Source of the DNA: Centroscyllium fabricii
Taxonomy: Eukaryota
Assembly (NCBI GenBank): GCA_051313645.2
Contig: JBNRSN020000012.1
Span: forward strand, 58,528,001 to 58,592,000
DNA length: 64,000 bases
Direction: 5' to 3'
The translations under genes were made by a program, and so were the position numbers. The notes beneath the pieces are model-generated. The model saw only the letters and a list, made by a program, of their open reading frames with translations, did no database searches and was not told where the DNA came from. Positions 6,890-31,136 of the stretch are shown here, piece after piece; positions within the stretch are counted from its first letter, which is position 1; each line of letters starts with the position of its first letter.

Positions 6890-7039
6890 GTAACTCTTGC
6901 AGCCATCAGTTCTTGACTAAAAACGATGAGAATATTTGCATGTAAAGGCTATATGATTAAGAGTAGCAGTTTACAGGAGCAATGTATATTTATAGATATT
7001 TTGATTTACTACTTAGACTTTGCACCATCTTTGTTAATA

Positions 7040-7752
7040 CAGGTTGAGCACCGTTAATCCGTTACCTGAAAAACCGGCAACTTCGAACGTCCAGCAATAA
7101 TTTCCCCGACTGTTCCGCGCATGCACAAAATAGCTGCCGCGATTGATGCTTCGCCGAATGATCTGCTCATGCGATTGATGCTTCGCCAAATGATCTGCGC
7201 ATGCGCAGATCATTCACAATGGTCTCTCCGAGCCGATGCCGGGCCGTGTCTCCCCGAACGATGCTGGGCCGGGTCTCCCAGAACGCGGGCTGGGACTCCC
7301 CGAACGCAGGCTGGGCCGGGACTCTCTGAACGCGGGCTGGGCCGGGACTCTCTGAACGCGGGCTGGGCCGGGACTGCCGGTACTCTCGGAACGCATGCTG
7401 GGCCGGGACTGCCGGGGCTCTCTGAACGCGGGCTGGGCCGGGACTATTCGAACGCGGGCTCTGCCGGGACTCTCCGAACGCGGGCTGGGCCGGGACTGCT
7501 GGGGCTCTCTGAACCAGGACTGCCGGGACTCTCTGAACACGGGCTGGGCCAGGACTCTCCGAACGCGGGCTGGGCGCCAGGATTTCCCGAACGATAAGCG
7601 CATGCGCAGACCACAAAATGGCCGCCGGCCTTTCGCGGTGGCCATTTTGAATGATCTGCGATTGCGCTTGCCGAAGCTTCAATCATTCGGGATTTTCACT
7701 TTCCCGGCACGGGCCTGGTCCCGCCCATGCCGGATTAACGGTGCTCAACCTG
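7040..7752. mobile_element. Tc1/mariner-pogo-type MITE, subfamily B, with 26/35-bp internal minisatellite
   Basis: TA|CAGGTTGAGCACCGTTAATCCG ... CGGATTAACGGTGCTCAACCTG|TA; ACTCTCTGAACGCGGGCTGGGCCGGG array at ~7225-7590. Confidence 0.92.
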
Positions 7753-7794
7753 TAGAATAACCTTGTCCAGGATATTACTCTGTTGCTGTTTTAA

Positions 7795-8140
7795 GAACAT
7801 AAGAAATAGGAGCAGGAGTAGGCCAATCGGCCCCTCGAGCCTGCTCCGCCATTCAACAAGATCATGGCTGATCTGATCCTAACCTCAATTTTATTTTTAC
7901 TCTCCACCCCGCCCTGACCAATGTGATCACCTGGGAGAGGTGAAAAAACAGATTTTAAAAAAAAACAGTAGCCAATTTTGGAGAAATAAAAATCAGGAAA
8001 ATTCCTCTCCGACCCATCTAGGCGATCGAAAACTGGTCCAGGAGATCACATGGCCGATCTGAACCTAGCCTCACGTCCACTTACCAGCCCGTTCACCATA
8101 ACCCCTAATTCCCTTTAATTCCAGGAAACTGTCTATCTTG
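7795..8140 (-). mobile_element. CR1 3' end with composite tail
   Basis: AGAACATAAGAAATAGGAGCAGGAGTAGGCC tail; two GATCTGA(T/A)CCTA motifs around a spacer. Confidence 0.7.
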
Positions 8141-8340
8141 TGTGAATGAGATTTATGGCCAAAGATAAATATTTGGATGATTGTTTGTGCATGCAATACA
8201 GTGTACAGATGTGTAAAAAACCATCATAAACCATTCTTTATATATTTCATTGCTGGCTAATAAATTTTGATTGCTACAACATATTCCATTTTACAACACT
8301 GGTTTATAATGTTGAAGGGTTTTCCTTTCCTCCTTTGAAG

Positions 8341-8417
8341 GCCCCCCCAGCGAAATCAAAGCCCATCGGAGATCCACAAAGAACTGAGAATGGGAGGGGC
8401 TGGCTGCAACAGAACAG
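8341..8417 (+). CDS. LRCH3: LRCH3 internal exon (APPAKSKPIGDPQRTENGRGWLQQNR)
   Basis: Polypyrimidine tract then gaag acceptor, CAG|gtatt donor; phase 0->2 fits both neighbours. Confidence 0.85.
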
Positions 8418-9155
8418 GTATTGCCTTCAGCTTCATCTTGGAGCAAATTTACATGAAAGAATGAAGAATAGTTGTACATTTGAAATCACAAATGTATTTC
8501 AAATCCAGAGCATCCTGAAAATAATTTTACTGGATATATAATTTCTCTTGCTGCAACACATTAGGGCTTATAATTGTAACAGCCAAGACCGGTAAACAGA
8601 AAAAAAGTTATATTATCATGTCCTTTATATATCTCTAATGTAAGTAAAACATTTTAAAGATTTGATAGCACTACAAAATATTCCAAATATGGAAGTACAG
8701 TATCAAGGTGCATTTTTGATTGTGTAGTAGTTAATTAATAACTATTACTGGGATGTGACATTCTTTAATTTATTGTACAGTAATTATTGTCTGTTACATA
8801 TGAATACTGTTTGAGTGAAAGGCAAACTGAGAAAAACCCTGACAAAAAACTTGACAATGTACAGACTTAGTGAGATCAGCTAAATTAGCACAAGCTAAAG
8901 ATCAAAGAGCCCATTGAGGCCTGTGTGTCTTATTGTAACCACAGGTCTGCCTGTGTCTGCCTTTTTCGATGGCTAGGTTATGCTCACTAAGTCTGTACAT
9001 TGTCAGGGTTTTTCCTCAGTTTGCTATCTTTCAGCATGGTCAGGTAATCAGCCATGGTGTACTGTCTGTTTAGGGCCAAATAGCAATCGAGTTTGCTTTG
9101 GGTTTTTGTCGTTTCTTTCCAATATGTCAAATATTTTTCTTTTTGTTTAGTAATA

Positions 9156-9746
9156 CAGGTTGAAGTTCATTAATCCGGCAGGGTCGGGACCAGCACCCTG
9201 CCGGATTGCTGAAAACGCTGAATTATTGAAGTCACGGCGGCACATGCATAAAACCTTCAAAATGGCCGACGCGAAATTTTCAATGCTCTGCGCATGCGCT
9301 CGCCGGTACCTGGCAGTTGATTTTCAGCCCAAGGGTCGGGTGGCACTCGCACTCGATTCTGCTGCGGGTCAGGGAGCGGGCTGCACGGCTCCAGCGGGCC
9401 TGAGGCCCAATGCGCGGCGCACCGCACGCCAGCTTCAGAACGCGGTGACGTCAGCACGCAGCCAGGCAGGAGCCTCCGGTAGCGATGGGCACCAAGCATT
9501 GCCTGTGTCGCTCCCTGCGAAAGGCGGCTGGCACAACAGCTCATCTTCTGGGCCTGGGATTCACCATCGGCAGCGGGGTGGTCACTAAGCCGGGATCCAG
9601 TGAGTATATGTTAGGTGAAAGAGAAGCCCAGCCCCGACGGTGGCCATTTTAAATTGTCTGCGCATGCGCCGGGCAGTCGGGGAAATCTGTGCCGAACGAC
9701 TGAAGCTGCCGGTTTTTCGGGTGCCGGATTAATGAACTTCAACCTG
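9156..9746. mobile_element. Tc1/mariner-pogo-type MITE (B-related) inserted in the LINE
   Basis: TA|CAGGTTGAAGTTCATTAATCCGGCA ... TGCCGGATTAATGAACTTCAACCTG|TA; the LINE coding sequence continues on both sides. Confidence 0.92.
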
Positions 9747-11474
9747 TAATTGTGTTGGGTCGAATTTTCTGTGCTAGGATGTCAGTATCCTGGGGCAGGT
9801 TGTTACTAGTAGTGTTAGTAGTTACTTCACTGAGTCCCAGGACCAGTTGACTGAGGGGACTCTTTATGTTCGCCTCTTGGCATTTCAGGGCTTTGTAGTG
9901 ATAGCAGTGGGGGTTGCTCATTTTTAGATGTTTCCAAAATTTGATGGCTCTTTTTTGGATATTAATTAGTGTTGGATATTGGCCTAACTCTGCCCTGCAT
10001 GCATTGTTTGTGGTTTTCCTCTGAGTCCGGATGATATCTTTACAGAATTCTGCATGTAGGGTCTCAATTGGATGTTTGTCCCATTTTGCAAATTTGTGTT
10101 GTGTTAGCGGACCCCACACCTCACTGCCATAAAGTGCAATTGGTTCAATTACTGATTTAAAAATTTGAGCCAGATGCCAATTGGAATTTCTATTTGGATT
10201 GACTTTTTAATTGCATAGAAAGCCCTTTTTACTTTCTCTTTCAGTTCATTTACAGCCAAATGAAAATATCCCGTAGAACTGATTTTTAAGCCTAAGTATG
10301 TGTAATTTGTAGTTTGTTCAATTTTAGTTGCTCCTAATGTGAGGTTTATTTTGGGTCCCTGATGTCTGGATCTTTGCTGGAACACCAGAACTTTAGTTTT
10401 TTGGGGGTTTATTGTCAGGGCCCAGGTCTGACAGAATGACTCTAGCAGATCAAGGTTCTGCTGTAGACCCTCTTCTGTTGGTGTGAGCAGAACCAGGTCA
10501 TCTGCACAGAGGGGGAATTTAACCTTGGAGTCATATAGGGCGAGGCCAGGTGCTGTAGATTGTTCAAGTAGTTTTGCCAATTATAAATCTTAAGAGTCGG
10601 TGAGATAGATGAGCCCCATGCCACGCCCCTGTGAGAAATATTTTGTTTGTTTGTCTCCAATTTTAATTGCACATTTATTGTTTATATACATTGATTTAAT
10701 TACATCATATGTTTTTCCCCCTACACCACTTTCAATAAGTTTTAAGAATAGACCGTCATGCCAAATAGAATCGAAAGCCTTTTGGAAGTCTATAAAGCAG
10801 GCAAAAATGTTGCTTTTGTTTTGGTGGACATGTTTGTCAATTACGGTGTGTAGGGTGAAAATATGATCCGATGTTCTATAATTTGGTAAGAATCCAATTT
10901 GGCTTTTACTCAAGACATTTTGCTCCATAAGAAAGGTTATAAGTCTTTTGTTTATGATACTACAGAATACCTTCCCCAGATTACTGTTCACACAGATGCC
11001 TTGGTAGTTATTTGGGTCGACTTTGTCTCCACTTTTATATATGGGCGTTACGAGTCCTTTGTTCCAGACATCAGGGAAGTAACCGACACTCAGAACCAAG
11101 TTGAAGAATTTTAGGATAGCCAATTTCAGTTTATCATCAGTGTGTTTAAGCATTTCGTTTAGGATGCCATCTGCACCGCAGGCTTTTCTTGGTCGCAGGT
11201 CCATGAGTTTTTCAAATAGCTCTTTTTCAGTTATAGAGTAGTCTAAGGGGTTTTGGTAATCTTTTACGGTCAGTTTGAGCTTTTCCAATTTTTTACATAT
11301 TTGATCTTGTTCTGGGCTTAGTGTGTTTTTCTGTTATAATTTTTCAAAGTGGTTTTCCCATGTGTCTCCATTTTGAATGGGCAATTCATCGTGTTTTTTT
11401 GTAATGTATTCGAGTTGTCCCAGAAACAATTGGAATCAATAGATTCTTCAGTGGCGCTGAGGTTTTTCTTAATA

Positions 11475-12065
11475 CAGGTACACAATCCCTTATCCGCAAC
11501 TCCGAAAACCGAAAAGCTCCAAAAACCGAAAGTTTTTTCGGAGCGTCACATGATCTGATTTGCGCCAAAATAACTTAATTTGTTTTCTCAGCTGGGGATA
11601 TTGTGCTGTTTTCTGGATCTGAAGTAGCTGGAAATTGGGTATTGTCACCAGTCCCTGCTAGCCAGGATGGTTAGAATCCGAACGCTGAAAGTTTTCATCT
11701 GTTTCCTCCTCCTCAAGGAGCCGAGGTTCATTTTTGCGGCGATGCTGCTGGCCATCGACATCCTGGTCGCCAAGATGACTGCTGGAGCTGGCCTGGTGAC
11801 GGTTGCTAGGGGAGCAGATGCTGCTGGAGCTGGTCCGGTGATGGTTGCTAGGGGAGCAGACGCTACTGGAGCTGGTCCGGTGACGGTTGCTAGGGGAGCG
11901 GATACTGCTGGAGCTGGCCCGGTGACGGTTGCTAGTTTCAGTGCGTAATTCAACACAGCCATGCGTTCTGCGCATGCGCACTGGGCACCAACCCGAAAAC
12001 CGAAATTATCCAAAAACCGAAGACCGCCCGGTCCCGAGGTCTTCGGATAAAGGATTGTGTACCTG
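11475..12065. mobile_element. MITE subfamily A (opposite orientation to 924) with 42-bp internal repeat
   Basis: TA|CAGGTACACAATCCCTTATCCG ... CGGATAAAGGATTGTGTACCTG|TA; about 4 x 42 bp at 11778-11935. Confidence 0.92.
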
Positions 12066-13525
12066 TATACTGTTCTTTCTTGATTGAGTGTTTTTATATT
12101 GTGTTAGCGCCTGACAATAGGCATGGTGTAATTCCTCATTTTCTGGTTGTCTGTGTTTTTGGTTTGATATTTTTCTGAGTTTTTTCCTAATGTTATGACA
12201 GTCTGAATCAAACCATTTTTCATGGTTTTGTGTTTTGGATTTATTCTGGGACGATTTCAAGTTGGACATTGATGCCAAATTCTCAAAAATACTATTTAAG
12301 TTATTCACTGCCAGGTTTACGCCTTCGTTATTTTGAGTGTATGTGTTTTCCAGAAAGGTGTCTAAGAGAGGTTGAGTTAATTGACTGCTAATTGCTTTCT
12401 GGTATTTTTCAGTGCTGTTTTGGGCCCATCTGTATGATTTTTTTATGTTGTACAGCTTACTGGGCTGTGTTTCTGTGTTGGTTGTTTCTGTCCTTTGAAG
12501 ATACGTGGTAATTTGGCTGTGATCTGACAGAGGTGTTTGCGGTTTGACTGTGAATGCTCTGAAAGAGGATGGGTCCAGATCTGTAATCATATAGTCTACG
12601 GTGCTGATGCCAAGAGGTGAAGTCTAGGTTGATTTTCCGAGAGAGTCCCCTCTGAACCTACCATTGACAATGTACAGACCCAGGCTTCGACAGAGCTGCA
12701 GGAGTTGCTTTCCATTTGCATTTGTCTGTTTGTCGTAATTATTCCTGTGTGAATGAAAAGGAAGATCAAAAAGGTTATTCCCAAATATGTAACTATTCCC
12801 CCGAGTACTAATAATGTCTGGTTCTTCACCAGTTCTTGAGTTGAGATCACCACAGATCAACACATTTCCCAGGGCCTGGAAATGGTTAATCTCCCTTTCA
12901 ATGTTGGAGAAGGTGTCCTCTTTGAAGTACGGGGATTCTATAGGGGGGGATATAGATTGCGCAAATGAAATATTTCTGCCTGCTCGAAATAATGTCTTTC
13001 TTAATCTTGAGCCATAAATTATTTTCGCCCTTTTTTATAAAGTCATTGTAATTCCTAAGCTCTGCTTTAAACCAAATCAGTATGCCTCCGGAGTCTCTGC
13101 CCTGGGTTACTCCTGGCAGTTTATTGGAGGGAACTACCCGGTGGACCCCTCTCCTCTACACCAGGTTTCTTGCAAAATAATAATGTCCAGATCTTTGATT
13201 TCATCTAAGAACTCTGGGATCCTGCTCTTCAAACCAAACACATTAGAGCGTAGGCCTTGGATATTCCAGGTTGAGATGCACAACAATTTCATGTTAAGAT
13301 TGGTCATTTACTGTAATTTTTCATGTGTGGGATGGGCCAGTCATTGTCCTTCCTGCTCCATAAGGCGGGAGCAGATGATGCTGAGCATCTGCTGTATGTC
13401 TCTCCATGGGTTGTCTCTGCCTGCAGTATTTCTTACCGCCTGAGCATAGCTCCATCGGTCGGGCTGGAATTCCTGCTGCTGGGGTGGGCCTGCCATCCTG
13501 GGAGGTAGTCACCCAGCCGATTGGG

Positions 13526-13814
13526 TGCCCGCCCGCCACCTTTCAACGGCGGGGTTCCCGCCAGGCGGGTTTTGGGTGGGAAGAGGGCTAAAATAGTTGA
13601 GGGCCCTTAAAATAGGATTACCCATCCAATTAAGAGCTCTCAACGAGCTCATTCTGCATCCCTGCCGGCGGCCGGTGGGAAACATTCGGGGCGGGAAAAC
13701 CCGCCCGAGGAAAATCGCAAATGGGCGGGGATCCGGCTTCCCGCCCGCCGGAATTGTGATTTTTAGACCCCGCCCCGCCGGAAACCCGCCCTCACGGCCC
13801 TCCGAAAATCCCCC
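13526..13814. mobile_element. Right half of a GGGGGATTTTC-ended non-autonomous DNA transposon (Harbinger-like)
   Basis: Ends GAAAATCCCCC; shares GAGGGCCCTTAAAAT..CCAATTAAGAGC with 32181-32939. Confidence 0.65.
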
Positions 13815-14430
13815 TCAAGGGCTCAAAAATTGGAGCTTTGTGTCAAAATTTGCATATTATACTAAATTGAGGGTATAGCTAATAATGTGGAGCACTGCAC
13901 AGTCGCTCTCGCTCGTTTGTTCACTGATGTGTGCTTTACTGCCTGTGCTCCCCATGGACCTCCACCTGTTACATTAACTTCATGCTCTCCTGTTCCTTTT
14001 CCCCTTCTTACTCTCTATGCCTTTCCCTCCTCTTCTCCCCTCCCCTCGCTATTTTTGTCTTCTCTTACCTTACCCATTCCCCCTTTGTAGCCTTGGTACT
14101 GCTCTTCCTCCTCCCCTGTTGTCACCAGTCCTGTTCTTCATTCACCCTCCCCCTCTCCCCGTCAGACAGAGTGCACTCTTGCTCACCGTTAAGAGTTCAG
14201 GGGGAGGGGGGTAGCAAGGAAACAGGGACACAGCTGCCGGTGTGCTCCTGGCCACTGGCTTTGGAGCCTACTGGCTGTTATGGGGTCATTGTGGGAGGCT
14301 TGTGCCATCATGTCTTCCAGCTACCCCTGCAGGCTCTTCGGTCCAGCAGGATTCTGATGCAGCCCCACCACAAGGTGCCTTTGCTGAAGTGCGAAATCCG
14401 GACACCTCATTCCCATCTCGTTTACGTCCT

Positions 14431-17400
14431 TATAGAGTCGTAGAGTTTTACAGCACAGAAAGAGGCCCTTCGGCCCATCACGTCTGTGCCGGCCATCGAG
14501 CCCTGTCTACTCTAATCCCATTTTCCTGCATTTGGTCCGTAGCCTTGTATGTTATGGCACTTCAAGTGCTCATCCAAATGCTTCTTGAATGTTGTGAGGG
14601 TTCCTGCCTCCACCACCCTTTCAGGCAGTGAGTTCCAGATTCCAACCACCCTCTGGGTGAAAAAGTTCTTCCTCAAATCGCCTCTAAACCTCCCGCCCCT
14701 TACCTTGAAACTATGTCCCCTTGTTATTGACCCTCTACCAAGGGAAAAAGTTCCTTGCTATATACTCTATCTATGCCCCTCATAATTTTGTACACCTCAA
14801 TCAGGTCCCCCCTCAGCCTTCTCTGCTCCAAAAAAAACAACCCCAGCCTGCTCCAGCCCAGGTAACATCCTGGTGAATCTCCTCTGCACCCTCTCCAAGG
14901 CAATCACATCCTTCCTATAGTGTGGTGACCAGAACTGCACACAGTACTCCAGCTGTGGCCTTACCAGCGTTTTGTATAGCTTTATCATAACCTCCCTGCT
15001 CTTATATTCTATGCCTCGGCGAATGAAGGCAAATATCCCATATGCCTTTTTAACCACCTTATCTACCTGTCCTTTTGCCTTCAAGAATCTATGTACATGA
15101 ACACCAAGGTCCCTCTGATCCTTTGTCTTTCCTAGGGTCTTACCATTCATTGTCATAGTCATAGAGTCATAGAAACTTTACAGTGCGGATAAAGGCCATT
15201 CGGCCCATCCAGTCCGCACCGGCCCAGGAAACTCCTCACTATACTAACCCCATTTGCCCGCACCTGGCCCATAACCCTGTATGTTACGGTCCTTCATGTG
15301 CTGGTCCAAATATTTTTTAAATGTTGCGATGGTTTCTGCCTCCACCACCCTTACAGGCAGGGAGTTCCACACTTCCACCACCCTCTGAGTAAAGAAATTT
15401 CTCCTTACCTCCCCCCTAAACCTCCCCCCCCTAATCTTGAATCTATGTCCCCTAGTACTTGACTCTCCCACCAAGGGAAACAATGCCCCTTTATCCACCC
15501 TATCGTGTCCTCTCATGATCCTGTACACCTCAATCATGTCACCCCTCAATCTTCTCTTCTCCAAGGCAAACAACCCCAGCCTGTCCAGCCTTTCCTCGTA
15601 GCATAAGTCCCCCAGACCAGGTATCATCCTGGTAAACCTTCTCTGCACCCTCTCCAGGGCAACCACATCCTTCCTGAAGTGCGGTGACCAGAACTGCACA
15701 CAGTACTCCAGCTGAGGTCTCACCAGCGTGTTATACAAGTTTAACATTACCTCCCTACTTTTGTATACTATGCCCTGGTTAATAAAGGCCAGAATTCCGT
15801 ATGCCTTCTTGACCACCTTGTTTACGTGTCCAGCAACCTTCAGGGAGCTGTGCACCTGTACCCCAAGGTCCCTCTGTTCCTCGGTCCTACCTAACGTTTT
15901 TTTGTTCATGGTATATTCCCTTACCCCATTTGGTCTGCCGAATTGTATGACCTCGCATTTCTCTGGGTTGAACTCCATTTGCCATTTTTCTGCCCAACTA
16001 ACCATTACATTTATATCTTCCTGGAGCCTTTTACTATCTTCATCGTTATTTACCACCCTTCCAATTTTCGTATCATCAGCAAATTTGCTGATCGTACCCC
16101 CTACTCCCATGTCCAAATCATTGATGTATACTAGAAACAGTAAGGGTCCCAAAACCGATCCTTGGGGGACACCGCTGGTTACTGGTTTCCAGTCACAGAA
16201 GCAGCCCTCTACCATTACCCTTTGTCTCCTATCCCCCAGCCAATTTTGAATCCACTGTGCCAAGTTGCCCTGTATCCCATGTGCTTTAACCTTTGTTATT
16301 AGTCTCCTATGTGGGACTTTATCAAAAGCCTTGCTGAAGTCCATATACACCACGTCAACCGTACTCCCTTCATCCACCCTCTTTGTTACCTCTTCAAAAA
16401 ATTCCAAGAGATTAGTTAGGCACGACTTACCTTTGACGAAGCCATGTTGACTATCCCTTATCAGACCCTGCTTTTCCAAATGCAGACTGATTTTGTCCCT
16501 CAGAATTTTTTCCATTACTTTCCCCACTACAGATGTAAGACTGATTGGCCTATAGTTACCCGGTTTGTCCCTACTACCCTTTTTAAACAGGGGTACTACA
16601 TTAGCCGTTCTCCAGTCCTCGGGTACATCCCCTGACGCGAGAGAGGACCTGAAAATTTGAGACAGGGGGCCCGCAAGCTCTTTCCTGGCCTCGAACAGCA
16701 GCCTGGGGAACATCGCGTCCGGCCCTGGTGATTTGTCTACCTTTAAGCTTCCCAAGATTTCTAGTACTTCTTCCCTTGTAATGGTAATATCCTCAATTAC
16801 CCCCCCTACACTCTGTCCGATTACGATGTCGGTTCCGTCCCTCTCTCTTGTGAATACTGAAGAGAAAAATTCGTTTAGTACCTCCCCCACCGCCTCGGGC
16901 TCGACGCACAGCTTTCCGCTATCGTCCTTAATGGGCCCCACTCTTTCCCTCGTGATCCTTTTGTTTTTTATATAACTGTAAAATGCCTTAGGGTTATCCT
17001 TGATTTTGCCGGCCATTGCAATCTCATGACCCCTCTTGGCTTTTCTTATCTCCTTCTTTAATTCCCCCCTATACTTCTTATACTCCCCTAGCGCCTCCTC
17101 AGTTTTTAGCCGTTTATTGTGTATTCCCTTGCCTTGTTAGTCCTTCCAAAATGCATCACCTCACACATTTCAGGGTTAAATTCCATTTGCCACTGCTCTG
17201 CCTATCTGACCAACCCATCTATATTGGCCTGCAGACTGAGGCTTCCCTCCTCGCTATCTGCAACCACACCAAGTTTTGTGTCATCAGCGAACTTACTGAT
17301 CATACCCTTTACATTCATATCCAAATCATTAATATAGACTACAAACAGCAAGGGACCCAGCACCAATCCCTGCGGTACCCCACTGGACACAGGCTTCCAG

Positions 17401-17797: not shown

Positions 17798-18110
17798 ATA
17801 AGAACATAAGAAATAGGAGCAGGAGTAGGCCAATCGGCCCTTCGAGCCCGCCCCGCCATTCAATAAGATCATGGCTGATCTGATCCTAACAACCAACCTA
17901 CTATCACAGAGGCATCTCCTACATCTAACAGAATTCGACACAGGAAATAGGAGCAGGATCAGGCTACACGGTCCCTGGGCCCGCTCCACTACCCACAGGG
18001 CCATGACCGATCTGAACCTAGACTCATGTCCAGGTTCCTGCCTGCTCCCCGTAACCTTTAATCCCTTTTACTACTAGGAAACTGTCTATTTCTGTTTTAA
18101 ATTTATATAA
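17797..18110 (-). mobile_element. CR1 3' end with tandem diverged tails
   Basis: Two AAATAGGAGCAGGA...GATCTGA(T/A)CCTA units. Confidence 0.7.
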
Positions 18111-18568
18111 TGGTACCACGTTAGCTGTCCTCCAGTCTATTCTAGGCACAGGCTGATTGTCTTCAGGTTAGGGAGACCACATTGCACCAGCTCTCTGCTC
18201 CAAGAATGTTCCCCAGGTGCAGTGAAGAGGCAAATCTCCCTTCCTTTGTCTGCGGTTCCTCCACCCCCCCCCCCCCCCCATCTGCATCTTGCCCTTCCTT
18301 TTGCAACAGTTCTCCCAGGTAACTGGCTGCAATTTGCCACTGTTCACTTTTTTTTTTTAAGTGCCCGTAGAGGTTATGCTATATTCGCTGAGTAATTTTT
18401 ACTTTAGCAGATATACCATGAGAAAGGGAGCAACTGTTTTCCTGCCGGCAAAGTGCAGGTCCTTCGGAAGATGAAGGCATTGGTGTTTGTGCTGTACACA
18501 CTTTTAAGTGAAAGCCAGTAAACCAGTGAAACTTATCTATAGCCCCAGGAGCAGCTCAACTTGAAGGT

Positions 18569-18772
18569 GATGTGGAGGTGCCGGTGTTGGACTGGGGTGG
18601 ACAAATGCAAGAAGTCACACAACACCAGGTTATAGTCCAACAGTTTTATTTTAAATCACAAGCTTTCGGAGCTTCTGCCCCTTCGTCAGGTGAAAGAGAG
18701 ACTGACTGAGAAAACTTGTGATTTAAAATAAAACTGTTGGACTATAACCTGGTGTTGTGTGACTTCTTGCAG
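18569..18772. mobile_element. Penelope-like mini element: inverted pLTR pair with hammerhead core
   Basis: ~55-bp inverted repeat (18606-18662 / ~18715-18771); 9-bp TSD CTTGAAGGT; minus strand TCAC-CTGACGA-AGGGGC-AGAA-GCTCC-GAAAGCTT-GTGA. Confidence 0.8.
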
Positions 18773-19871: not shown

Positions 19872-20216
19872 CAGGTTGAGTAATCCTGGCACTCTCGGGA
19901 CCAGGCCGCTGCCGGACCACTGAAAATTCTAAACCACTGACGGTTCGGGTAGAGCGCGCGGGTAGAACACTCTCTGGGGCGGGGCCTGGAGCGCGCGGGT
20001 AGAACACTCCCCGGGAGGGAGCCCGGGGATAGAGCACTTACAAGCCTGAAAAAAACAGAAACCTAAACGCCTGACGCCTTCGGCGCTCGCCCACCCTTCA
20101 TAGGAAACGGTGGCGCCGCTGCCGAGCGGCTGCTCCAAAGACCGCCGGTTTCGATTCGTGCCGGACAACTGAAATGTTCCGGACCATCGGGTGCCGGATT
20201 ACCGGTGCTCAACCTG
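19872..20216. mobile_element. Short MITE (B-related) with ~37-bp internal repeat
   Basis: TA|CAGGTTGAG-TAATCC (small deletion) ... GGATTACCGGTGCTCAACCTG|TA. Confidence 0.85.
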
Positions 20217-21383: not shown

Positions 21384-21438
21384 TGGATCTTCAGATGCTG
21401 GCTTGATCTCTCAAACTCCATCTAATGGCCAATATGTG
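21384..21438 (+). CDS. LRCH3: LRCH3 internal exon (GSSDAGLISQTPSNGQYV)
   Basis: ttctctttccag acceptor, GTG|gtaatt donor; supplies the phase 2->0 link the exon chain needs. Confidence 0.75.
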
Positions 21439-21678
21439 GTAATTATTATGCAGTTGATTGCATTAAAGTGCCTTCTGTTAAATCATCTGTCATCCATCAG
21501 TTATTTGAGCAGTTTTTGTCATATCTGAACAGCTGCATTATTGAAGGGAATTGCAATTGAAATGGTGAAGTTGGTCTGGAAGGACCCAGATGCAATGATT
21601 TACAGCTGTAATGAAGCTAGATTAAAATGTCAAGATAAGAGTTAAATAGAAGAATTGTGCAGCCCAGGTTATCTTAGT

Positions 21679-23010
21679 CAGGGCGTGACAAAACCGCTTG
21701 CCCGGGGCAAGCAATATGCGCCGCAGGGCAAGCAAATGAAAATCGCACTTGCCCGACCGAGCTCGGCCAATCACAGCCCGGCAGTTTTCTCGCGCTCCGG
21801 CGGTTGCTGGGTTTGAAGCGCTGCCCCCTGCCCGTGCTCGGCCAATCATAGCTCGCTCCGGCCGGCTGCCACCGCAACAGCTCAGCATCTCGCAGCAGCT
21901 CGAACCGAGCAGGAAAGCAAGGGCGATAGCAAAATACTGCAGATGCTGGAAATCCGAAATAACAACAGAAAATGCTGGAAAAACTCAACTGGCCAGGCAG
22001 CATTGGTGGGGAGAAATATAGAGTCGATAGAGAAATATAGAAGCTCAGCTTTGTCCCCCCCCCACCCCCAGCCACCACACCCTACTGTTCCTCACCCAAT
22101 TAAAAGCAGAAAACCACAAAGGCTGCAAAAATGAAAGATCTGAGAAAAAGATGAACAGATGGTGAGTGAAGGGACTGGGATGAGGTGACAGCGGGCTTCC
22201 TCTCAGGGACACTGACACCCAGAGACCGAATCCAGGGACACTGACACCCAGAGACCGAATCCAGGGACGCTGGCACCCAGAGACCGAATCCAGGGACACT
22301 GACACCCAGAGACCGAATCCAGGGACACTGACACCCAGAGACCGAATCCAGGGACACTGACACCCAGAGACCGAATCCTGGGATACTGACTCTGAGACCA
22401 AATCCAGGGACACTGACATCCAGAGACCAAATCCTGGCACAGTCCAAGGTGCGAAAAAACCGCTTGCCCGCTCGATGATAGAGGCCACGGGAACGGGTGG
22501 GTGGATCCCGCCCTGGAGGCGGGTGCGGATTGGCCGGTGGGGGCCAAGCGGCGCAGTGGGGATTGGAGGAGGCGGCGTGTCAATCGAGACGGGGCAGCAG
22601 TCGGGTTAGGTGGAACGGGCTGGTGGCACGCGGCAAGAGTGTGTCGGTGCCGTCGACCCGCTGAGGGGGAGAGAAAAAACCGGAGCGGCTGCTGGACAAA
22701 GGTAGGCGGGGAGAGAGAGTGAGGGAGCCAGCGGCCTGCGGAGGCTTCACAGAAAGTTTGGTAAATGAGGGAAGAATGTTCAGAGTAGAGAGAGCGAGAG
22801 ACCCTGGCAGAGAGGGGCAGAAACTGGGCCAATGCAACTAAAGGCACAATCACAATCTATGACTTTATATTGAAGCATTTTAATAAAAACATAAAATCTT
22901 TAATTATTTCTTTAAAAATTTTGGGCAAGTGAAATTTGTGTTCAGGCAAGTGTTTTAGAAATCCACTTGCCCGACTGGGCAAGTGATAAAAATGTTTTTG
23001 TAGCACCCTG
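21679..23010. mobile_element. Non-autonomous hAT-like DNA transposon with 5-bp TSD
   Basis: CAGGGCGTGACAAAA ... TTTTGTAGCACCCTG; TTAGT on both sides; subterminal CTTGCCC/GGGCAAG motifs; contains a Penelope pLTR piece (~21925-22020) and a 29-bp array. Confidence 0.8.
22205..22440. repeat. 29-bp minisatellite, about 8 copies
   Basis: AGGGACACTGACACCCAGAGACCGAATCC in tandem. Confidence 0.95.
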
Positions 23011-23691
23011 TTAGTGTACCATAGATATAGAGAAATTGATATATTTTATGTCCGTTCCATCAATGAAGAGTACTTGAAACCGAGGCAGTTTCTTAAATTG
23101 AATTGTTCAATTCTGTGTCTCTTCCCAATTTCATTTTTGTTTTTCAATTCGTCATAACTAACACACTGCACTGCAGAGTAGTAGAAGTTGGGTTAATGCC
23201 TATGATTTTCCCAATACAGGATAATCAGGTAAACCAGTTCACTTAAATAAAAGAGAATTCAGGCTGTGATACTTGCTCACCTTCCTTCCTTCCTTCCCCC
23301 CCCCCCCAGTTGGTTACAGAGTGGGACTGGCAGACATCAGAGCAGGTTGTGTTGTGGGCATTGCAATCCAGGGAGCCAATGAAGAAGGCCTGCTGAGTTT
23401 CTCCAGCGTTTTCTGTTGTTATTAAGGACAAAGATATCTTCTTTAAATCATTAAGAAGACATCTTTGAAAATAGAATTGCATTGCATGGATCGTCAACCG
23501 TTAAATCTTACGGACATTCAGAATTCATCATTGCTGACCTTTTCCTTTCGTAGATTAGGCATAATGGGTATACTTAAAATACAGTTTTACATTACAGCAA
23601 TTGGAAGCTAATATTGTTGTAAAAGGAATTCTTCATTTGAAGATCAGTGGTTGGTGAAGAGGTTGGATGATTTGAATGCTGTACTTGTCAG

Positions 23692-23853
23692 ACTTCGAAT
23701 GTGGGGTGCTCAGAGCTGGAGTTGCAGAGGCGACGTGAGCAACTACTGGTGGAACGGACCAGAAGAGAGGTGCAAATCGCAGCCCAACAATATGAAGAGG
23801 AGAGAATCCGAACAAAACAAATTCAGAAAGAAGCTGTCCTTGACTTTGTGAGA
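23692..23853 (+). CDS. LRCH3: LRCH3 coiled-coil exon (TSNVGCSELELQRRREQLLVERTRREVQIAAQQYEEERIRTKQIQKEAVLDFVR)
   Basis: cttgtcag acceptor, AGA|gtaagc donor; 162 nt, phase 0->0; resembles recalled LRCH3 RREQLVERTRREAQLAALQYEEEKIRTKQIQ. Confidence 0.93.
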
Positions 23854-25459
23854 GTAAGCACACACATTTTAAAGATCTAATAACGATGCAGTTGTAATTT
23901 TCCAGGTACAGTCCAGAATGTACCAACTTTGTTAGTTTACTGAAGAAATGGTCTGTGGGAGCTCTACTTGGTTTCCCCTCTCTATTTTAGCCTTTTTTCT
24001 TCTTTTGGGTCTCCCACTCTCCGAACTTTTACCAACCTAAATAGCTAACAAAATTGCAGAGCAGGCTCAGTTGCCAGCCTTTGTTTCTGCGTTCCTCAGG
24101 GATAGTCAGGAAACTTGCTCCAGACTTCTGGTGAAACTATTCTGTGACCACTCATTAGGAGCTCTGTGACTCCCCAGCCTGTGCTCAGCATCCCCTAATC
24201 GTCTCACTGAACTCAAATGCATCAAAAGTGCTATCAGTCCATTGGCGGACTGTTCTTTTTAAAATCTTAATGTCTTTCCTCCCCTGCACCCAGTCGTTTA
24301 TAAGTGGGGAGGGGGATTATGTATTGCCCCAGTGACTTTAAAAACTCTCCTCATATTTAAAGCCTTAAGGCACTTGAAAATTAGTATTCTGAGCAATCAG
24401 CCTATTTCAATTATAGCTCTTTCAGAAGTAATCCACCATCTTAAAATGAATAATTACCACAAAATTTGTTCTGTTTGTTTTTGCACCTCTCTCACCCTCT
24501 AGATTCCTTTTAAAAAGGTAGTGTCCTCCAGTCCAAATGGAAATGGCAGTACTTCATGTATTAATCTGGACAGGTGATTTTGGCAGCGATTTTGTACGTG
24601 GGGGCAATGGGAGAATCACAGTCCTCTCCTTGTTCCGATGCACGTATGCACACTGGATACTAATCTGGAGTAGGCGCTCTGGTCTATTGCTCCTTCCTAA
24701 TCCAGGAATGTCGAGTCCAAATGTTGTGTCGCTGCTGTCACCCATGTTACATATCCGGCATCTAATCTGGGGAGCTACCTGGTCTGTATGGCTCCCATTA
24801 TATGCTGGCTTTACCAACGGAGCAATCAGTAAAGTTAGACTTTCAACTTTACCAACTTTATCGTGCCTTTCCCATCTGATGAGTTTGTTTCAAAAATCAC
24901 ATTTGTGGGAACCTCTTTGAATGATTGCAAATGTAACCCCTAACAAGTTCAACTTGATCAATACCAAAGAGAATTCTCAAACGTTAATACTAACGCATAA
25001 TGTTTATTTAAAATATGTAAGTTAGGCCCTTTTAATTAACACTGGTATTTATATGCTTGGGTGTATGTTGTTGTGACTAATACCTGTATTAACCTTTGGA
25101 ACATTGTGGATTTGTTGTCTGGGTGTAGTTGGGCTTCATGTGCCCAAGAGAACTCATCCTGTAGCAGCACTTTCGCATTTGATGCTTTAAAATATGTCAG
25201 ATGCTTCAGTACCATTTTTCAAATAATCAGCATCATTTTCTCATGGGTCATGCGGCTTTAAGATGTGAGTAAAAGATGGAAACATTCCTGCTTAGCAAAG
25301 TTGCAAGTTACTTGTGTGCTGGTGAGTATTTTATCTGAGTTGGCAGGTGTAAAAGTACAAACTCATTCATCAAATGTACAATTTATGGAGCTGCCACTTT
25401 AATGTCATTTATAGGAATGGTGGCTAAGATGATAGTGTTTGTGCTTTATCTCCCTGCAG

Positions 25460-25516
25460 CAAAAGAGTGGCCAGAGCCCTCAGAAACAGAGTTCCTCAGA
25501 CAGCGATCACAGTGAT
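25460..25516 (+). CDS. LRCH3: LRCH3 internal exon (QKSGQSPQKQSSSDSDHSD)
   Basis: ccctgcag acceptor, GAT|gtaagt donor; 57 nt; QSPQKQ motif. Confidence 0.9.
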
Positions 25517-26555
25517 GTAAGTCCTTGTGCAGGTTTAGCTGGATGTTAGAGAATAGAGTGAATGGCGAGAGATCTGTCTGACCTTTTTTTAAAGGGACAG
25601 TGATGTTAGTGTCTCATAACCTTTCAGTTCACACTTCAAGGACAGTACCACTTGTAAAGGAAAAACATCACGTACCAGAATATGTGATCTTTGTCTGTCT
25701 GGGTTATCCCTATACACCTGTCCCCTTTCACTCCTTTGGAGTACTTCATTTGTACTGATCATATTCTAGACATGCTTCGATATCAAGTTATTTAGAACAA
25801 AATTACCATTTAAGAAATTAATTTGGAGGATTTTGTAATATAGGTTTCCTGGAGTAGATTTTGTACATAAATATTCTATAGGTAACTGCTCTTCCATATC
25901 ACAATGACAGGTTTGTAGAGGATGTGGCTTTTCCTCTTCTGTATTGACGGATCAATGCCTCTTGTTTTGCTGTATCGCTTTCTGCAGTGAACAGTAATTG
26001 TTTTAATGTATTTTATGAATATCCTTGTAAACATCTATTTTTTATTTATAGAATTGTACAAGGATAGCAACATTTCCAAATTCAGAACTCAAAATTATTG
26101 TCTGATTGTTGTGAGAACTGAGATAGAGTGGATGTTTTAAACTAGTCTTCCTGTGCAAAGCTGGAAAACTGCTGTTCCCTCACCTCACCCCTCCCCAATC
26201 TCTGACTCTTATTGAATTGTAACTTGTAAAAACGTTGTCCTTTTTGACACAGTTTTGCAGCAGTTTCTCCCCCCCCCCCCCCCCCCCCATTTTTGCTGGC
26301 ATTGTGCACTTGTTTGGAGACAAGAACATAACCAATTTAATCATCAGGTTTCTTTTTTTTTGTTTCTCACTGTGTTTTGTCCAGTCCCAATTGGAACGCA
26401 AAGTTTAGTCCAGACTGATCCTCGATTGGCACTATTTTGGTTTGGTTTAACTCTGTTCAGATGATTAGTTTGCTTGTCCCTACATGTGACTGTTGAGAAT
26501 ATTTGTTGTGTTTTGTTATGATTACTCATTTCTCTCCCCGTTCCCCTCCCCCCAG

Positions 26556-26615
26556 CTCCCCAAACATTTCCCTATCAGACGGTCCCAGCACACAGATGAT
26601 AGCGCCTTGTTAGTG
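26556..26615 (+). CDS. LRCH3: LRCH3 internal exon (LPKHFPIRRSQHTDDSALLV)
   Basis: Long pyrimidine tract then cag, GTG|gtaag donor; RRSQHTDDSAL motif. Confidence 0.92.
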
Positions 26616-29600
26616 GTAAGAGTGTGTCTGCATGGATTGGCCTGTATTTTAATAGAAGTTTAGATCATAGAAATGGCATGATGTGTAATCTATCAATTTA
26701 CCAATCATTAGCTAAAGCTTTACTGAATAGCACAACTCACATTAAAATGGAAGGATTCTTTGTGCTCCATCACTGGAGAATATCCTTATGACACTTGTGG
26801 AAACAGAATTTTCTTCTACAATGACTGGAACACATTTGTGTCAAGTCTTTGCTAAACAACATCCTATAATAATAACAACTTAAAGGCAAGCAAGCAAAGG
26901 GAAAAAAAGTTCTGTTTAATCTTGCATCTGGATTTGTCATAAAAATAGCAGAGACACAAATCAGTCTCTTGAATGGAAGAGATATAGTGGTACTGTTCTT
27001 TTATTAGATCACTTTTTAAACGCTATACCATAAACAAAATAAAGAACACAATGGGTGGGAAATTGAGTGAAGCAGTGACACTTTTTTCAACTCTCTTACT
27101 TGAGTTTTGAATCCAGTCTAAACTGATGAGGTGAACATCTCCTCGCTCAACTGCCTGTAATATGACTACCTGAAATGAATTTGGGCAGCCTCATTCAATT
27201 TCTCGTGGGTGCAGGTCCACAGAACAAAAGGCTTCCATTTGGCAGTCTTGCTGGCGAATAACTTAAGTGGAATAATCCATACTGGTTATTTGGCACATTA
27301 GTGGGAGGAGCAGCTGGGCCCTTAATTAACATATAATATACCTTGCCTGGAAACACTTGATGCTGGCACTGAGTAATAATTGTTGCCTTTCCTGCTTCTG
27401 ACATTTCTCATCCCATTGAAGGTAAAAGTAACTTTAAAAAATTGATACTAATGATGCTGCATAATAATATATTAAAAATGGAATGAAATCAGTGACTTTA
27501 GATTCACTGTTTTAACACCTATGCTTTCTTCAGCAAAGTAGTTGATATGTTGTACTGTTTTGCTGATCTTTCACTGAGTGGATGTGCTGAAGGTCTAATT
27601 TGGAGCCCTTAACAAATTGCTTTATCATAGCTCTGTGTGACAGTGTTTTACAAATCTTTGGAAGCCAAATCAGACCTCTGACGCCTGACATCTTGGACTG
27701 ATCCATGAAATGAGTGGGTTGAATATCTCAAATGAAACCACATTACTAGTCAACTGGGGAAAATTCGAAGTTGAACTCTTGATTTGTGGCCACCACACTT
27801 GGTGCATAGTATAATCAAGAGCACCAAAACAAGAAGGAAGGAGTAGTGTACTGTTCGGTTGACCCTGCACTGATGACCTCCATTAGGTGAACACAGAGTA
27901 GAAATGGCAACAAGGACATAAAGTGTAGGACAAGAAAAGACTTTGGTCCAATAACCTTGCTCATTTCATGGACTGTGTACAATCTACCCATCGTGGACTT
28001 GAACCCTCCCACTTAATCTCTCGGCAAACCCATGTAATCACCTAAGAGATAACTGTGCATAAAAAATCACTAATCATAAAAGGAAATCCAACAAAAAAGC
28101 AAAATATTCGTCCAACGCCACACTTCCACTATTCTTCTGTCCTGCACAGACAACAAATTCCCTTCCCCAGCAGTAGAGGAATCCTCATATTTCATTGATG
28201 ATTTGATCATGTCAGTCAATACCATTCCTGTAACCGGCAATCCTGTTCCCAACCAGATACTTACACAACACGGAATCGAGTGCCTTTGCTAGGAGTCATT
28301 TACTAACTTTTGGGAGTGGGGGAAGTTTTTTTCTATTCTCACCTCTTCATAAAAGAGTTGGTGACATCATATAACCCCGCTGGTTGAAAGATAATTTAAG
28401 ACAGGGCCTTTAAAGAAAAGGGAATAAAACATTCAAGTGCAAGCCTTTTTGAGATCACAAATTGATTATGCTTATATACAAGTGCTTAAAATGAACAAAA
28501 TGGGCAGAGAGAAGGAGAAAGTGCAAACTTTGTAAATTCAAAAACTTCCCAAAGCAATTCTTGTTCAACTTGAAGTTGGGAAAGACAGCTGTGGTTTGTG
28601 CTATTCACATTAACTTTACCTAGTAGTGATTTATTCACAGTTACCTGATTCTGACTTGAATCCGTAGTTAGTAACACTGTGCTGATCTTGCCCGGACAAC
28701 AGTGAGGCATGGAATGATGTTGCATTGCATGTACTCCACACCTGCCCACATTCTATCTGCAGTAATAACCAATGGGCTACTCGTTGGTGCAGTGGAGCAC
28801 ACAAATCATTGGAATGCATGCTTACACACTGCAATATATATAATATATATATTATCAAAGCTTTTAGATTACCCATGCATCAGAATGTTTTGTGGTCAAG
28901 TTATTTTATGTGACAACTGTACAAAGACCAGCGTGAGCTGAAATTTGCTAGTTCTGCCTTCACTGGTCTGTTGCAACAAAAGCATTTCCATAATGTGTGT
29001 CTGAACCATTGATTATAGTTTTCAAACTAGATTTTTGACACTTCTACTTTTCACCTTCAATTTTATTTTTTTCTAGTTTTAAACTCATGACATATCTAAA
29101 TTTTATTTACTTGATCTAAATTCTTTTAAGGTTTATTAAAATTAAATCGTTTCTGTTGATTACATCCTGTTTTTATTTTCTGACCTCTTTAACTCTTTCT
29201 TTGCCATATATTTATTTCATCATTTGTTGACTTCAACTTTTTTCAGAAGGGGTATTTGTTTTTGTTTGGAGGTGTGTTAGCTTTAATTCTTCGTTGGTCT
29301 GTTACTTTCACTGAGATATCTCAAGTTAATCTGTGTTTCATTTCTTTTGCTTTCTGTTTGGCTGCTACAGTATTTGCAGCTACTAAACAAATTAAGCACA
29401 GTAATGTCAAGATTCCTATGACCAGAGGAATGTTGAAACAGATAATAAAAGCTGTCATTTTTAAGCATGGGACTTTTGTTATAGGACGTTCTTCATTTGC
29501 CACTGGGCCACCTCGAGGCAGAAACTGAGTACTGCAGCATGGCATGGCCACTGTCCATTGATTTTTTTAAATGACGAGTCCAACCTTTTTGCAGATCTCC

Positions 29601-30404
29601 GACCAGTGGAATTTTTTTTAACTTGATGGGATTCACAAGTTGTTAGGATACTGTGTTTATCCTTACGGCAGGGACATTTTTAGCTGACTAAAATAGTGAA
29701 AATAGTTTTACACAACCCAATAAACTGCATGTTGTAAAAGCATTTTCTTTTTCATAGCCAGATAGATGAATCATACTTTTCCATGTAAAACCCAATAAAA
29801 GCTGTCGTGCCATATTTTTCCGCAGTCTGTGTTATTTAAGAGTTTTTAAGATGTGTGGCAGTTAATGGCTGAAGCTGGCTTGCTTGCATTTCAAAGTGCT
29901 CCAGTATAGTTGGGCAATAATAATTGCAAGGTTGACTGCTTATTTTAGTACCTGGGGGATTGTTCTAATATAAGGCAGATCTATGTGCTAAATACAGAAT
30001 CTTGTGTGCTGAAAACTTGATAAATACACACCTTTATGTTTATTATTGCCATTAGATTGCAGGTATGTTCAGTTTTTCTGGTGTATTGCTCTTGATGATT
30101 ATATTGATAATGCAGCAGCTAGCCCATTGAAGAACAATGAAATACTATGAAGCCACATTTGCGCTGAACCTGGTAGATTTTACTATGATTCGCAGCAAAT
30201 CAGTAAACCACCTTTAGGACTTCCTGTAATCTAATGAAAAGTATTTTCTATTGAACTGTTTACCAGAATGCTGGGTTTTTTTAAGTGTTAACTTCAGTTT
30301 TCATTTTCCTGCCTGGCAGAACCTCACTTCCATAGCTCTAATTTTGATAAACTAATGATCTACACACCATGTACAAATTTCAGCTGAAGTACTAATATCT
30401 AATA

Positions 30405-31136
30405 CAGGTTGTTCACCGTTAATCCGTTACCCGATAAGCCGGCAACTTCAGTCTTCTGGAACAAATTGCCCTGACTGCCCTGCGCATGCGCAAAATGGCC
30501 GCCGCGATTGATGCTTCGGTGAATGATCTGCGCATGCGCCACCGAATGGCGAGCACATGCGCAGATCATTCACAATGGCTGCCGTGAAGTTTTTAATGAT
30601 CTGTGCATGCACTGCCAAACAATCCCGGGCCGGGCCTTCCCGAGCCTCACCTTACCGAGCTGGGCCGGGGCTTCCTGAGCCGGGCCTCGCCTTACCGAAC
30701 CTTCCTGAGCCGGGCCTCGCCTTACCGAGCCTTCCCGAGCCGAGCCTCGCCTTACCGAACCTTCCTGAGCCGGGCCTCGCCTTACCAAGCCTTCCCGAGC
30801 CGAGCCTCGCCTTACCGAACCTTCCTGAGCCGGGCCTCGCCTTAACGAGCCTTCCCGAGCCGAGCCTCGCCTTACCGAACCTTCCTGAGCCGGGCCTCGC
30901 CTTACCGAGCCGAGCCGAGCCGAGCCTTACCGAACCTTCCTGAGCTGGGCCTCGCCGGGCCGGCCTGGGCCTTACCGAACAATAAGCGCATGCGCAAACC
31001 ACTCAAAATGGCCGCCGGCCTTTCGCAGCGGCCATTTTGAATGGTATGCGCTCGCCGAAGCTTCAATCGTTGGGGATTTTCACTTTCCCGGCACGGGCCT
31101 GGTCCCGCCCGTGCCGGATTAACGGTACTCAACCTG
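30405..31136. mobile_element. MITE subfamily B with 30-bp minisatellite in a 60-bp higher-order dimer
   Basis: TA|CAGGTTGTTCACCGTTAATCCG ... CGGATTAACGGTACTCAACCTG|TA; arms similar to 7040-7752; array ~30630-30980. Confidence 0.92.

Follow-up and report, generated by a model that had tools for sequence, protein, structure and literature searches.

A conserved NRF1 word near the ends of pogo/Tigger MITEs in a shark LRCH3 locus, and a tentative case for selection on mobile master copies

Introduction

The locus described here bears on an open question, namely how DNA transposons without a transposase of their own can outdo the parent elements and remain rich in CpG although the genome is methylated. 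The window, a stretch of 64,000 nucleotides from the shark Centroscyllium fabricii (GCA_051313645.2, contig JBNRSN020000012.1), consists of intronic LRCH3 sequence holding seven pogo/Tigger MITEs. It provides a natural test, with motif-bearing and motif-free sisters that share the same TIRs, a motif-less autonomous parent and intact transposase ORFs in the genome. A first-pass annotation had read the elements as possible portable CpG-island promoters or enhancers, or as users of host factors to stay unmethylated.

Element families and their setting

The coding exons of LRCH3 within the window extend from 502 to 61334, and every MITE is therefore intronic. The first coding exon of the gene lies about 130 kb upstream of the window and 130–190 kb from the MITE copies. 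NRF1-like words are also present in LRCH3's own promoter. The features are as follows.

924..1418, minus strand: Tigger MITE, TIR group II, subfamily C; TA on both sides, TIR 20/22; complete in 19/19 fetched relatives
6743..6889, plus strand: internal coding exon of LRCH3
7040..7752, plus strand: Tigger MITE, TIR group I, subfamily alpha; TA on both sides, TIR 22/22
9156..9746, minus strand: Tigger MITE, group I, subfamily B, Pack-TIR; TA on both sides, TIR 22/22; complete in 23/24 fetched relatives
11475..12065, plus strand: Tigger MITE, group II, subfamily D; TA on both sides, TIR 21/22; complete in 17/19 fetched relatives
19872..20216, minus strand: motif-free Tigger MITE, group I, subfamily E; CpG o/e 1.01; left TIR with a deletion in this copy
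30405..31136, plus strand: Tigger MITE, group I, subfamily beta; TA on both sides, TIR 19/22
63828..64000, minus strand: Tigger MITE, group I, running past the window end; from 63916 a tandem 31-base NRF1+YY1 module with decayed NRF1 words

All six complete elements exhibit a TA target-site duplication and short TIRs starting with CAG (identity 19–22/22, one deleted end excepted). The MITEs are non-coding and 345–732 bases long; their density in the 1-Mb sample, about 40 ends per Mb, extrapolates to roughly 1.4e5 elements genome-wide. They had been taken for one family, which does not hold, as several subfamilies in two TIR groups are present; the motif-free sister at 19872–20216 and the seventh element from 63828 had been missed. 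Autonomous relatives in the genome encode HTH_Tnp_Tc5 and DDE_1 domains. Group II (MITEs 924 and 11475) is partnered by Tigger ORFs of 505–619 codons (L192–L194), both ends being common with the MITEs, and the ends of MITE 924..1418 match this autonomous Tigger. For group I (7040, 9156, 19872, 30405 and 63828), the closest autonomous relative is a 2.4-kb Tigger family with a common subterminal block and a different TIR; the 105 transposase loci examined included other pogo families and no exact partner of this group. Ends of the human Tigger4/MER46 type are presumably a close known system. Tigger MITEs of the pogo superfamily are described with the same TA duplication, CAG-starting TIRs, subterminal repeats, lack of an ORF and high copy number (PMC7386202).

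The six complete MITEs (GC 53–63%, CpG o/e 0.81–1.06) all show CpG-island composition (GC >50%, CpG o/e >0.6, >200 bases). The host had been described as AT-rich and CpG-poor, which is correct for the window minus MITEs (41% GC, CpG o/e 0.35) but not for a genome sample of 100 evenly spaced 10-kb stretches (50.4% GC, 0.62). Subfamily E, the internal control, is as CpG-rich as the motif-bearing subfamilies and about as common. Region 6900–12200 gave 0 matches in Rfam.

NRF1 and YY1-like words in the window

The exact NRF1 word GCGCATGCGC occurs nine times, always inside MITEs (9/9), and is absent from the remaining 60,360 bases of the window. In 1000 dinucleotide shuffles of the seven MITEs, the mean was 0.021 and the maximum 1, which bears out the proposed enrichment of the motif in the elements; AAAATGGC, likewise seen nine times, had a mean of 0.30 and a maximum of 3. 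The sites reported previously were all recovered: TGCGCATGCGC at 1009, 7196, 9289, 9659, 11969, 30481 and 30529, GCGCATGCGCA at 7598 and 30986, and CAAAATGGCC at 7614, 9258, 30491 and 31004, with its reverse form at 7640, 9642 (AAAATGGCC only) and 31030.

Both group II elements carry a single exact NRF1 word and no YY1-like word (1010–1019 in MITE 924..1418, which has a 21-base minisatellite at 1060–1275; 11970 in MITE 11475..12065, which has 42-base repeats at 11773–11935). MITE 7040..7752 contains exact NRF1 words at 7197 and 7598 (the family consensus has five), YY1-like words at 7614 and 7640 and a GC-rich 26-base minisatellite at 7241–7593, while MITE 30405..31136 contains NRF1 words at 30482, 30530 and 30986, YY1-like words at 30491, 31004 and 31030 and a 30-base minisatellite at 30660–30956. 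The NRF1 words (9290, 9660) and YY1-like words (9258, 9642) of MITE 9156..9746 are all located in its arms. These words are not independent, as they derive from an NRF1+YY1 module of about 31 bases that was duplicated in tandem (63916–64000, period 31) and in inverted form (hairpin 7590–7670).

The assignment to NRF1 holds: GCGCATGCGC is the preferred NRF1 site and the one of highest affinity among those tested (PMC10810270), and an NRF1 DNA-binding domain is encoded in the genome. The YY1 core is enriched in the MITEs, but its identification is weaker than that of NRF1, the core being altered in 10–11 of 26 alpha copies. Across copies, the core AANATGGC shows 18/870 changes against 317/10453 (OR 0.68, p=0.12), and the YY1-like words of the MITEs do not match the full YY1 consensus. 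No title on NRF1 words in MITEs came up in a search of mainly open-access literature.

Position and invariance of the NRF1 word

In 1 Mb of evenly spaced DNA, 41 ends were called, three of which are by eye not MITE ends. The first NRF1 word lies 79–88 bases from the terminus in 17 of 19 motif-bearing ends; it is absent from 22/41 ends and, with one mismatch allowed, from 9/17 complete elements. The motif would be a helper rather than a requirement. Of the 36 perfect NRF1 words in this sample, 31 have a MITE end no more than 700 bases away. Transposons thus carry the majority of this shark's perfect NRF1 sites, which gives weight to the methylation sensitivity of NRF1 in this species.

Among four motif-bearing end groups, none of the ten motif columns varies, as opposed to 29/58, 20/58 and 16/58 terminal columns and 3–10 of 10 flanking columns. 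Between the TIR groups, motif identity is 1.0 and that of the flanks 0.11–0.41. Since the test takes in word-bearing ends only and these share kinship, the associated probabilities (0.001–0.04) are optimistic. The words most widely common to both TIR groups are overlapping NRF1 10-mers (15–16/22 and 3/14 end clusters). Of 23 aligned 3' ends from the autonomous group II family, 22 lack the word, and the one that has it resembles MITE D. The consensus of the autonomous family nearest group I lacks the word as well.

In the youngest subfamily (L043/L133), the two members are 1.0% apart and have seven exact words each. Even among young copies that are almost identical, the differences lie mostly at CpGs, and 4/7 words are gone from one of them. 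Between masters, CpG transitions make up 20/121 changes (17%; six consensus pairs) as opposed to 398/881 (45%) in copies (p=5e-10); the motif-free pair shows the low turnover too, and selection acting on transposase sites of the CCGG type could be behind it. Non-CpG sites between subfamilies show a transversion excess (54 vs 29), and the changes are clustered. Two further origins were rejected: a relic of the transposase promoter, as the motif is absent from both autonomous Tigger families and present at the 3' end, and a general AT-to-GC drift in MITE interiors, which was seen in one captured hairpin only.

Decay of the word in inserted copies

Fetched copies were top matches and rates were therefore taken from parts outside the query, except for subfamily E and the B interior (marked as selected). 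Excluded were the window's own copy of each set, 3/29 alpha and 6/29 beta loci without the far end, four alpha-type copies in the beta set, one B and two D loci, and columns with >20% transversion or non-CpG change. CpG transitions amount to 398/4044 compared with 235/15295 non-CpG transitions (about 6.4x), and the excess is 5–9x across sets (6.0x in motif-free E, 7.6–8.8x in the autonomous family), contrary to the suggestion that CpGs are retained. This excess points to germ-line methylation of the copies, and the MITEs are CpG-rich because their masters are, not because copies retain CpGs.

NRF1 words lose CpGs as fast as other CpG sites do (82/913, 9.0%, vs 268/2695, 9.9%; p=0.44, OR 0.89, 0.69–1.16), and non-CpG motif positions behave similarly (OR 0.91). 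Compared with other internal positions, the motif thus decays neutrally, which speaks against host factors keeping inserted copies unmethylated; 123/223 word positions are intact. Copy-to-copy heterogeneity is absent in five sets (p 0.28–0.92), and no protected subset appears among 104 copies, a sample that would miss rare co-opted ones. Neutral motif decay and the methylation-type CpG excess are two outcomes, seen here in sequence, that the first-pass annotation had itself named as refuting. In an unselected set, CpG loss is lower in motif families (136/1876) than in E (65/579), and also in NRF1 words (24/501) relative to other CpGs (112/1375); this set is confounded by subfamily mixing, the gap coming from young, mixed subfamilies with weak consensuses, and minus the poorly defined g11, g12 and g13 the values for NRF1 and other CpGs are 22/252 and 81/877. 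Some copy-level protection could account for the lower loss.

The inserted copies are likely methylated, decaying insertions, and those of the window look ordinary and inert as host regulatory elements. NRF1 is blocked by methylation (PMC9729108, PMC7605266), and transposable elements of the elephant shark are hypermethylated (PMC5437953). Host factors may still keep the transposing masters unmethylated, as these show little CpG loss and conserve the word.

A captured CYB561D promoter in subfamily B

9302..9638, plus strand: captured host DNA, promoter and first coding exon of a CYB561D-family gene; ATG at 9485, donor after 9599

One feature had been overlooked before: subfamily B does carry a real host promoter and first exon as cargo. 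The gene is likely CYB561D2. Consensus positions 149–495 match the parent locus L376:4003–4377 (86%, E 5e-115), with the following exons in L375 and L367; the captured 41-residue exon as a query returned no homolog, the parent match coming from other searches. The captured promoter holds an E-box (deleted in the window copy) and a CRE. No TIR lies within 1.5 kb of the parent, and the parent promoter has no NRF1 word; in the element, NRF1/YY1 words flank the cargo. A comparison of host and master for CpG loss on the master branch gave 3/58 CpG positions of the captured exon, but by eye most exon differences are synonymous and thus probably arose on the host branch. Among the assembled contigs listed, none formed a stack of loose ends at the captured splice donor; contigs cannot reveal starts, so this counts as evidence for neither side.

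Host, non-TE sequence between arms with an identifiable parent, which defines a Pack-TIR, was found in subfamily B only; interiors of the other subfamilies had no host parent in the DNA examined. Animal Pack-TIRs such as the multicopy Pack-hAT-N8_XT, with the CAPSL 5' UTR, likewise hold host 5' sequence between TIR arms and were amplified (PMC8277862). In contrast to these frog Pack-TIRs, which have few copies, subfamily B has at least 40 scored copies among 1679 first-look candidates, and NRF1/YY1 words that belong to the element itself lie on either side of its cargo.

Discussion

In the arms of these non-autonomous pogo/Tigger elements, an NRF1 word, in many cases accompanied by a YY1-like one, sits directly inward of the terminal block. 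Host-factor binding may keep a few master copies open and mobile, which would conserve the word between subfamilies, while in ordinary inserted copies, which are likely methylated, the word decays neutrally. The conserved word is best accounted for by selection on mobile masters, probably via such binding, a reading that we hold tentatively. From the sequence comparisons, we infer both NRF1/YY1 binding and a transposition advantage, and the word likely promotes the spread of the elements instead of acting as a portable promoter for the host. As a MITE moves without transcription, any benefit would act on DNA accessibility.

Somewhat less probable, and on the whole unlikely, is that the word came along as a neutral passenger. 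On this view, a piece of promoter containing NRF1 and YY1 words was captured once or twice beside the ends and multiplied by tandem and inverted duplication, with the palindrome persisting by favouring template switching or self-repair. One real promoter capture (subfamily B) and the duplicated 31-base module fit this, as do the thriving motif-free relatives and the neutral decay in copies, and the clustered changes and transversion excess between subfamilies suggest non-point processes. However, duplicates and subfamilies preserve the 10-mer exactly, CpGs included, even where the bases next to it have changed, its offset is identical in two TIR groups with unrelated flanks, and the identified parent promoter lacks the NRF1 word.

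It is improbable that the word acts in cis on behalf of the transposase or of end structure (a hairpin or alternating purine-pyrimidine tract), its likeness to NRF1 sites being incidental. A word that adjoins the subterminal block at a fixed offset, a right arm folding into a long hairpin and a third pogo family, whose YY1-like word resembles its own subterminal repeat, would all suit such a function, but the word is absent from both autonomous Tigger families examined, is common to two groups with different terminal repeats and equals the highest-affinity NRF1 site tested (PMC10810270). Very improbable is a host use of the copies as portable CpG-island promoters or enhancers that escape methylation, for although the six complete elements have island composition, one holds a true promoter and exon, the LRCH3 promoter uses NRF1-like words and the unselected set hints at lower CpG loss, the bulk of copies shows neutral motif decay, a methylation-type CpG excess and no protected subset, young copies differ largely at CpGs with 4/7 words lost in one, and the window copies lie far from the first LRCH3 coding exon.

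Selection on mobile masters has partial parallels in known systems. The IAP LTR with CREB1 and the L1 5' UTR with YY1 are likewise mobile sequences with methylation-sensitive or housekeeping host-factor sites that are methylation-silenced in most copies (PMC9729108, PMC7605266); they need transcription to move, whereas a MITE does not, and the MITE sites are putative. The blurry promoters of Tc1/mariner elements also place promoter-like sequence in IS630-Tc1-mariner ends, but they are AT-rich, weak in motif and drive the transposase (PMC6446368), whereas the shark elements have exact, GC-rich motifs at both ends, and the autonomous elements examined have none. Unlike the autonomous Tigger elements examined, the shark MITE lineages have the NRF1 word at a fixed offset.

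A broader and rather doubtful proposal is that mimicry of housekeeping promoters has evolved again and again in MITE lineages of vertebrates: two Tigger groups would have gained a perfect NRF1 site at the same place by their ends, and the youngest lineage multiplied it, as NRF1/YY1 binding keeps masters unmethylated and brings them to promoter hubs. If so, mobility would be raised without any transcription, the bias for capturing gene starts would be explained, and about 2e5 perfect NRF1 sites would have been loaded onto a genome whose host must methylate them. Related elements with the NRF1 word also occur in assembled contigs from another organism's runs.

MITEs and Motif Words in the Window

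The window contains seven MITEs that fall into two groups according to their terminal inverted repeats (TIRs), and TA is found on either side of all six complete elements:

924–1418: group II (C)
7040–7752: group I (alpha)
9156–9746: group I (B)
11475–12065: group II (D)
19872–20216: group I (E), CpG-rich, without NRF1 or YY1-like motif
30405–31136: group I (beta)
from 63828: group I, cut

The first-pass annotation had listed NRF1-like and YY1-like motifs here, and all of its motif coordinates are correct on re-scanning. Nine exact GCGCATGCGC words are present, each within a MITE, with none in the remaining 60,360 bases and a mean of 0.021 in shuffled sequence. In 100 evenly spaced 10-kb stretches of this 7.2-Gb genome (L031–L070 and L101–L160), 31 of 36 exact copies of the 10-base NRF1-consensus palindrome (NRF1 word) lie at most 700 bases from a MITE end, while 9 of 17 complete elements lack the word with one mismatch allowed. 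It is also the commonest palindromic 10-mer of the first 40 stretches (22 hits). The CpG-rich cores of MITEs other than subfamily B are mostly GC-rich minisatellites, and no parent sequence for these interiors was found in the genomic DNA examined.

All window MITEs are intronic and distant from the LRCH3 start. LRCH3 coding exons span 502–61334 (the exon at 6743–6889 shows up to 100% identity to shark LRCH3 proteins), and the first coding exon lies approximately 130 kb upstream of the window, within a separate CpG island that contains two GCGCACGCGC words and in which no MITE ends were found. The sampled stretches have 50.4% GC and a CpG o/e of 0.62, high for a vertebrate; the LRCH3 introns have 41% GC. 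A repeat of a different type, a long inverted repeat at 31616–32180, has arms (31616–31772 and 32023–32180) that are 94–95% complementary.

Autonomous Relatives

Searches of the genome for DDE_1 and HTH_Tnp_Tc5 revealed three pogo-type autonomous families. One (L192–L194) has both ends in common with group II MITEs; the second shares the subterminal block of group I and has a different TIR. Tigger is described as a pogo family widespread among vertebrates (PMC7386202), and the window elements are almost certainly decaying Tigger MITEs. The third family (L301–L329, ~3030–3150 in element orientation) carries CAAAATGGCCACCGTC at roughly 90 bases from its 3′ end; these 16 bases also occur in the subfamily B arm and may be a variant of the third family's own subterminal repeat.

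In L192–L194 (G000:C823, C800), intact Tigger transposase ORFs of 505–619 codons and a C2H2 zinc-finger ORF that reaches into the TIR converge tail to tail. Three or four near-identical loci show this arrangement, possibly through domestication or segmental duplication. MITEs are frequently inserted within autonomous Tigger copies (L170, L177, L198, L201, and L207).

A Captured CYB561D Promoter in Subfamily B

E-box and CRE words occur in the interior of 9156–9746, together with a 38-codon exon that terminates at a splice donor and matches N-termini of the CYB561D family. The parent of this DNA lies upstream of a second CYB561D-type gene, whose next exons follow in order and which would be CYB561D2, since the other locus is CYB561D1. 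Neither NRF1 word nor TIR is present at the parent, and the capture junctions directly adjoin the arms' NRF1 and YY1-like words. Subfamily B is a multicopy Pack-TIR, of the same class as the captured-DNA elements described in PMC8277862. E-box and CRE are retained in both versions, and a CCAAT word is found in the MITE (window 9390–9420) and not in the host parent (L376:4003–4377); it may have been gained in the MITE or lost in the parent.

Conservation Between Subfamilies

Clustering of 324 element ends gave 36 clusters. Depending on the end type, the offset at which the first NRF1 word begins is either 79 or 86–88. Of the 41 ends called in an unbiased megabase, 19 have the word, 17 of them at offsets 79–88. 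None of the motif columns varies among motif-bearing consensuses, as opposed to 28–50% of terminal columns and 3–10 of 10 flanking columns, in a test that is conditional on motif presence, with related ends and some consensuses built from 2–4 copies. Flank identity between the TIR groups is 11–41%, and the 10-mers most widely shared between their ends are NRF1 words; the word may have passed from one group to the other. The word is absent from 22 copies of the autonomous parent of group II, and parent/MITE homology stops where it starts. The youngest subfamily has seven exact NRF1 words. CpG transitions make up 20 of 121 changes between six consensus pairs versus 398 of 881 in copies, which suggests either that methylation spared the masters, the few mobile copies founding new subfamilies, or that selection preserved their CpGs.

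We tentatively favor the explanation that the motif module is kept through selection on these few founding copies. NRF1 of the host, possibly joined by YY1, would bind beside the transposase sites of the master, keeping the donor element open and favoring excision; bound masters may also be placed near promoters, which would later serve as repair templates. The genome encodes the NRF1 DNA-binding domain, and among the NRF1 sites measured the NRF1 word is reported to bind best (Kd 0.31 μM; PMC10810270). The module would work much as host-factor sites do in the promoters of IAP and L1. Searches of the literature, mostly outside subscription papers, turned up no account of vertebrate MITEs that carry NRF1 words.

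A neutral captured palindrome is a somewhat less likely alternative. A transposase or structural element, with which the narrow offsets would agree, is improbable.

Decay of Motifs in Inserted Copies

The part of the element used to retrieve copies was kept apart from the part on which they were scored. In the 104 copies of five unselected sets, CpG transitions affect 82 of 913 sites in NRF1 words versus 268 of 2695 other internal sites (OR 0.89, CI 0.69–1.16) and 48 of 436 in TIRs. Non-CpG motif positions are altered in 38 of 1377 cases versus 317 of 10453 (OR 0.91), the YY1 core in 18 of 870 (OR 0.68, p = 0.12), and 123 of 223 NRF1 word positions are still intact. NRF1 words change like other internal sites, and the YY1-like word is looser.

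CpG transitions are overall ~6.4 times as frequent as non-CpG transitions, with no copy-to-copy heterogeneity across the five sets. The ratio is 7.6–8.8 in the autonomous family and 6.0 in motif-free family E, a value biased low because its copies were selected. From this excess we infer germ-line methylation of inserted copies, consistent with the hypermethylation described for elephant-shark transposable elements (PMC5437953); methylation is reported to block NRF1 (PMC9729108, PMC7605266, and PMC7236515). For the bulk of inserted copies, this ratio and the NRF1-word CpGs do not support the proposal that they stay unmethylated or act as CpG-island promoters. Use as promoters by the host, which the motif words had suggested, is very improbable; by this germ-line test the MITEs are not CpG-island promoters.

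An unselected scan points the other way: motif families lost fewer CpGs (136/1876) than E did (65/579), and the loss in NRF1 words (24/501) was below that at other sites (112/1375). The gap stems from young mixed subfamilies; with these left out, the counts for NRF1 words and other sites are 22/252 and 81/877. One young copy has three exact NRF1 words and its twin, at 2.2% distance, seven. Motif CpGs in copies may be slightly protected.

Other Repeats

A young MITE subfamily (L043:2722–2977 and L133:524–1402) contains a 174-base hairpin repeat with T-to-C changes at 23 of 50 T and 8 A-to-G changes, each mirroring a T-to-C site. Genomic relatives have at most four such changes, and an unedited one lies at window 18568–18771. 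By its sequence, the repeat resembles an RNA hairpin that underwent A-to-I hyper-editing, became fixed in DNA and was then multiplied by a DNA transposon; neighbor preference of the changes is not significant (p = 0.31).

In an abundant LTR-retrotransposon-like family, gag-like and protease-like sequences flank a 45-base tandem repeat that contains AAGATGGCGGC words (L034:8549–8684, L040:4007–4140, L055:2131–2266, and L070:7105–7240) and is probably coding.
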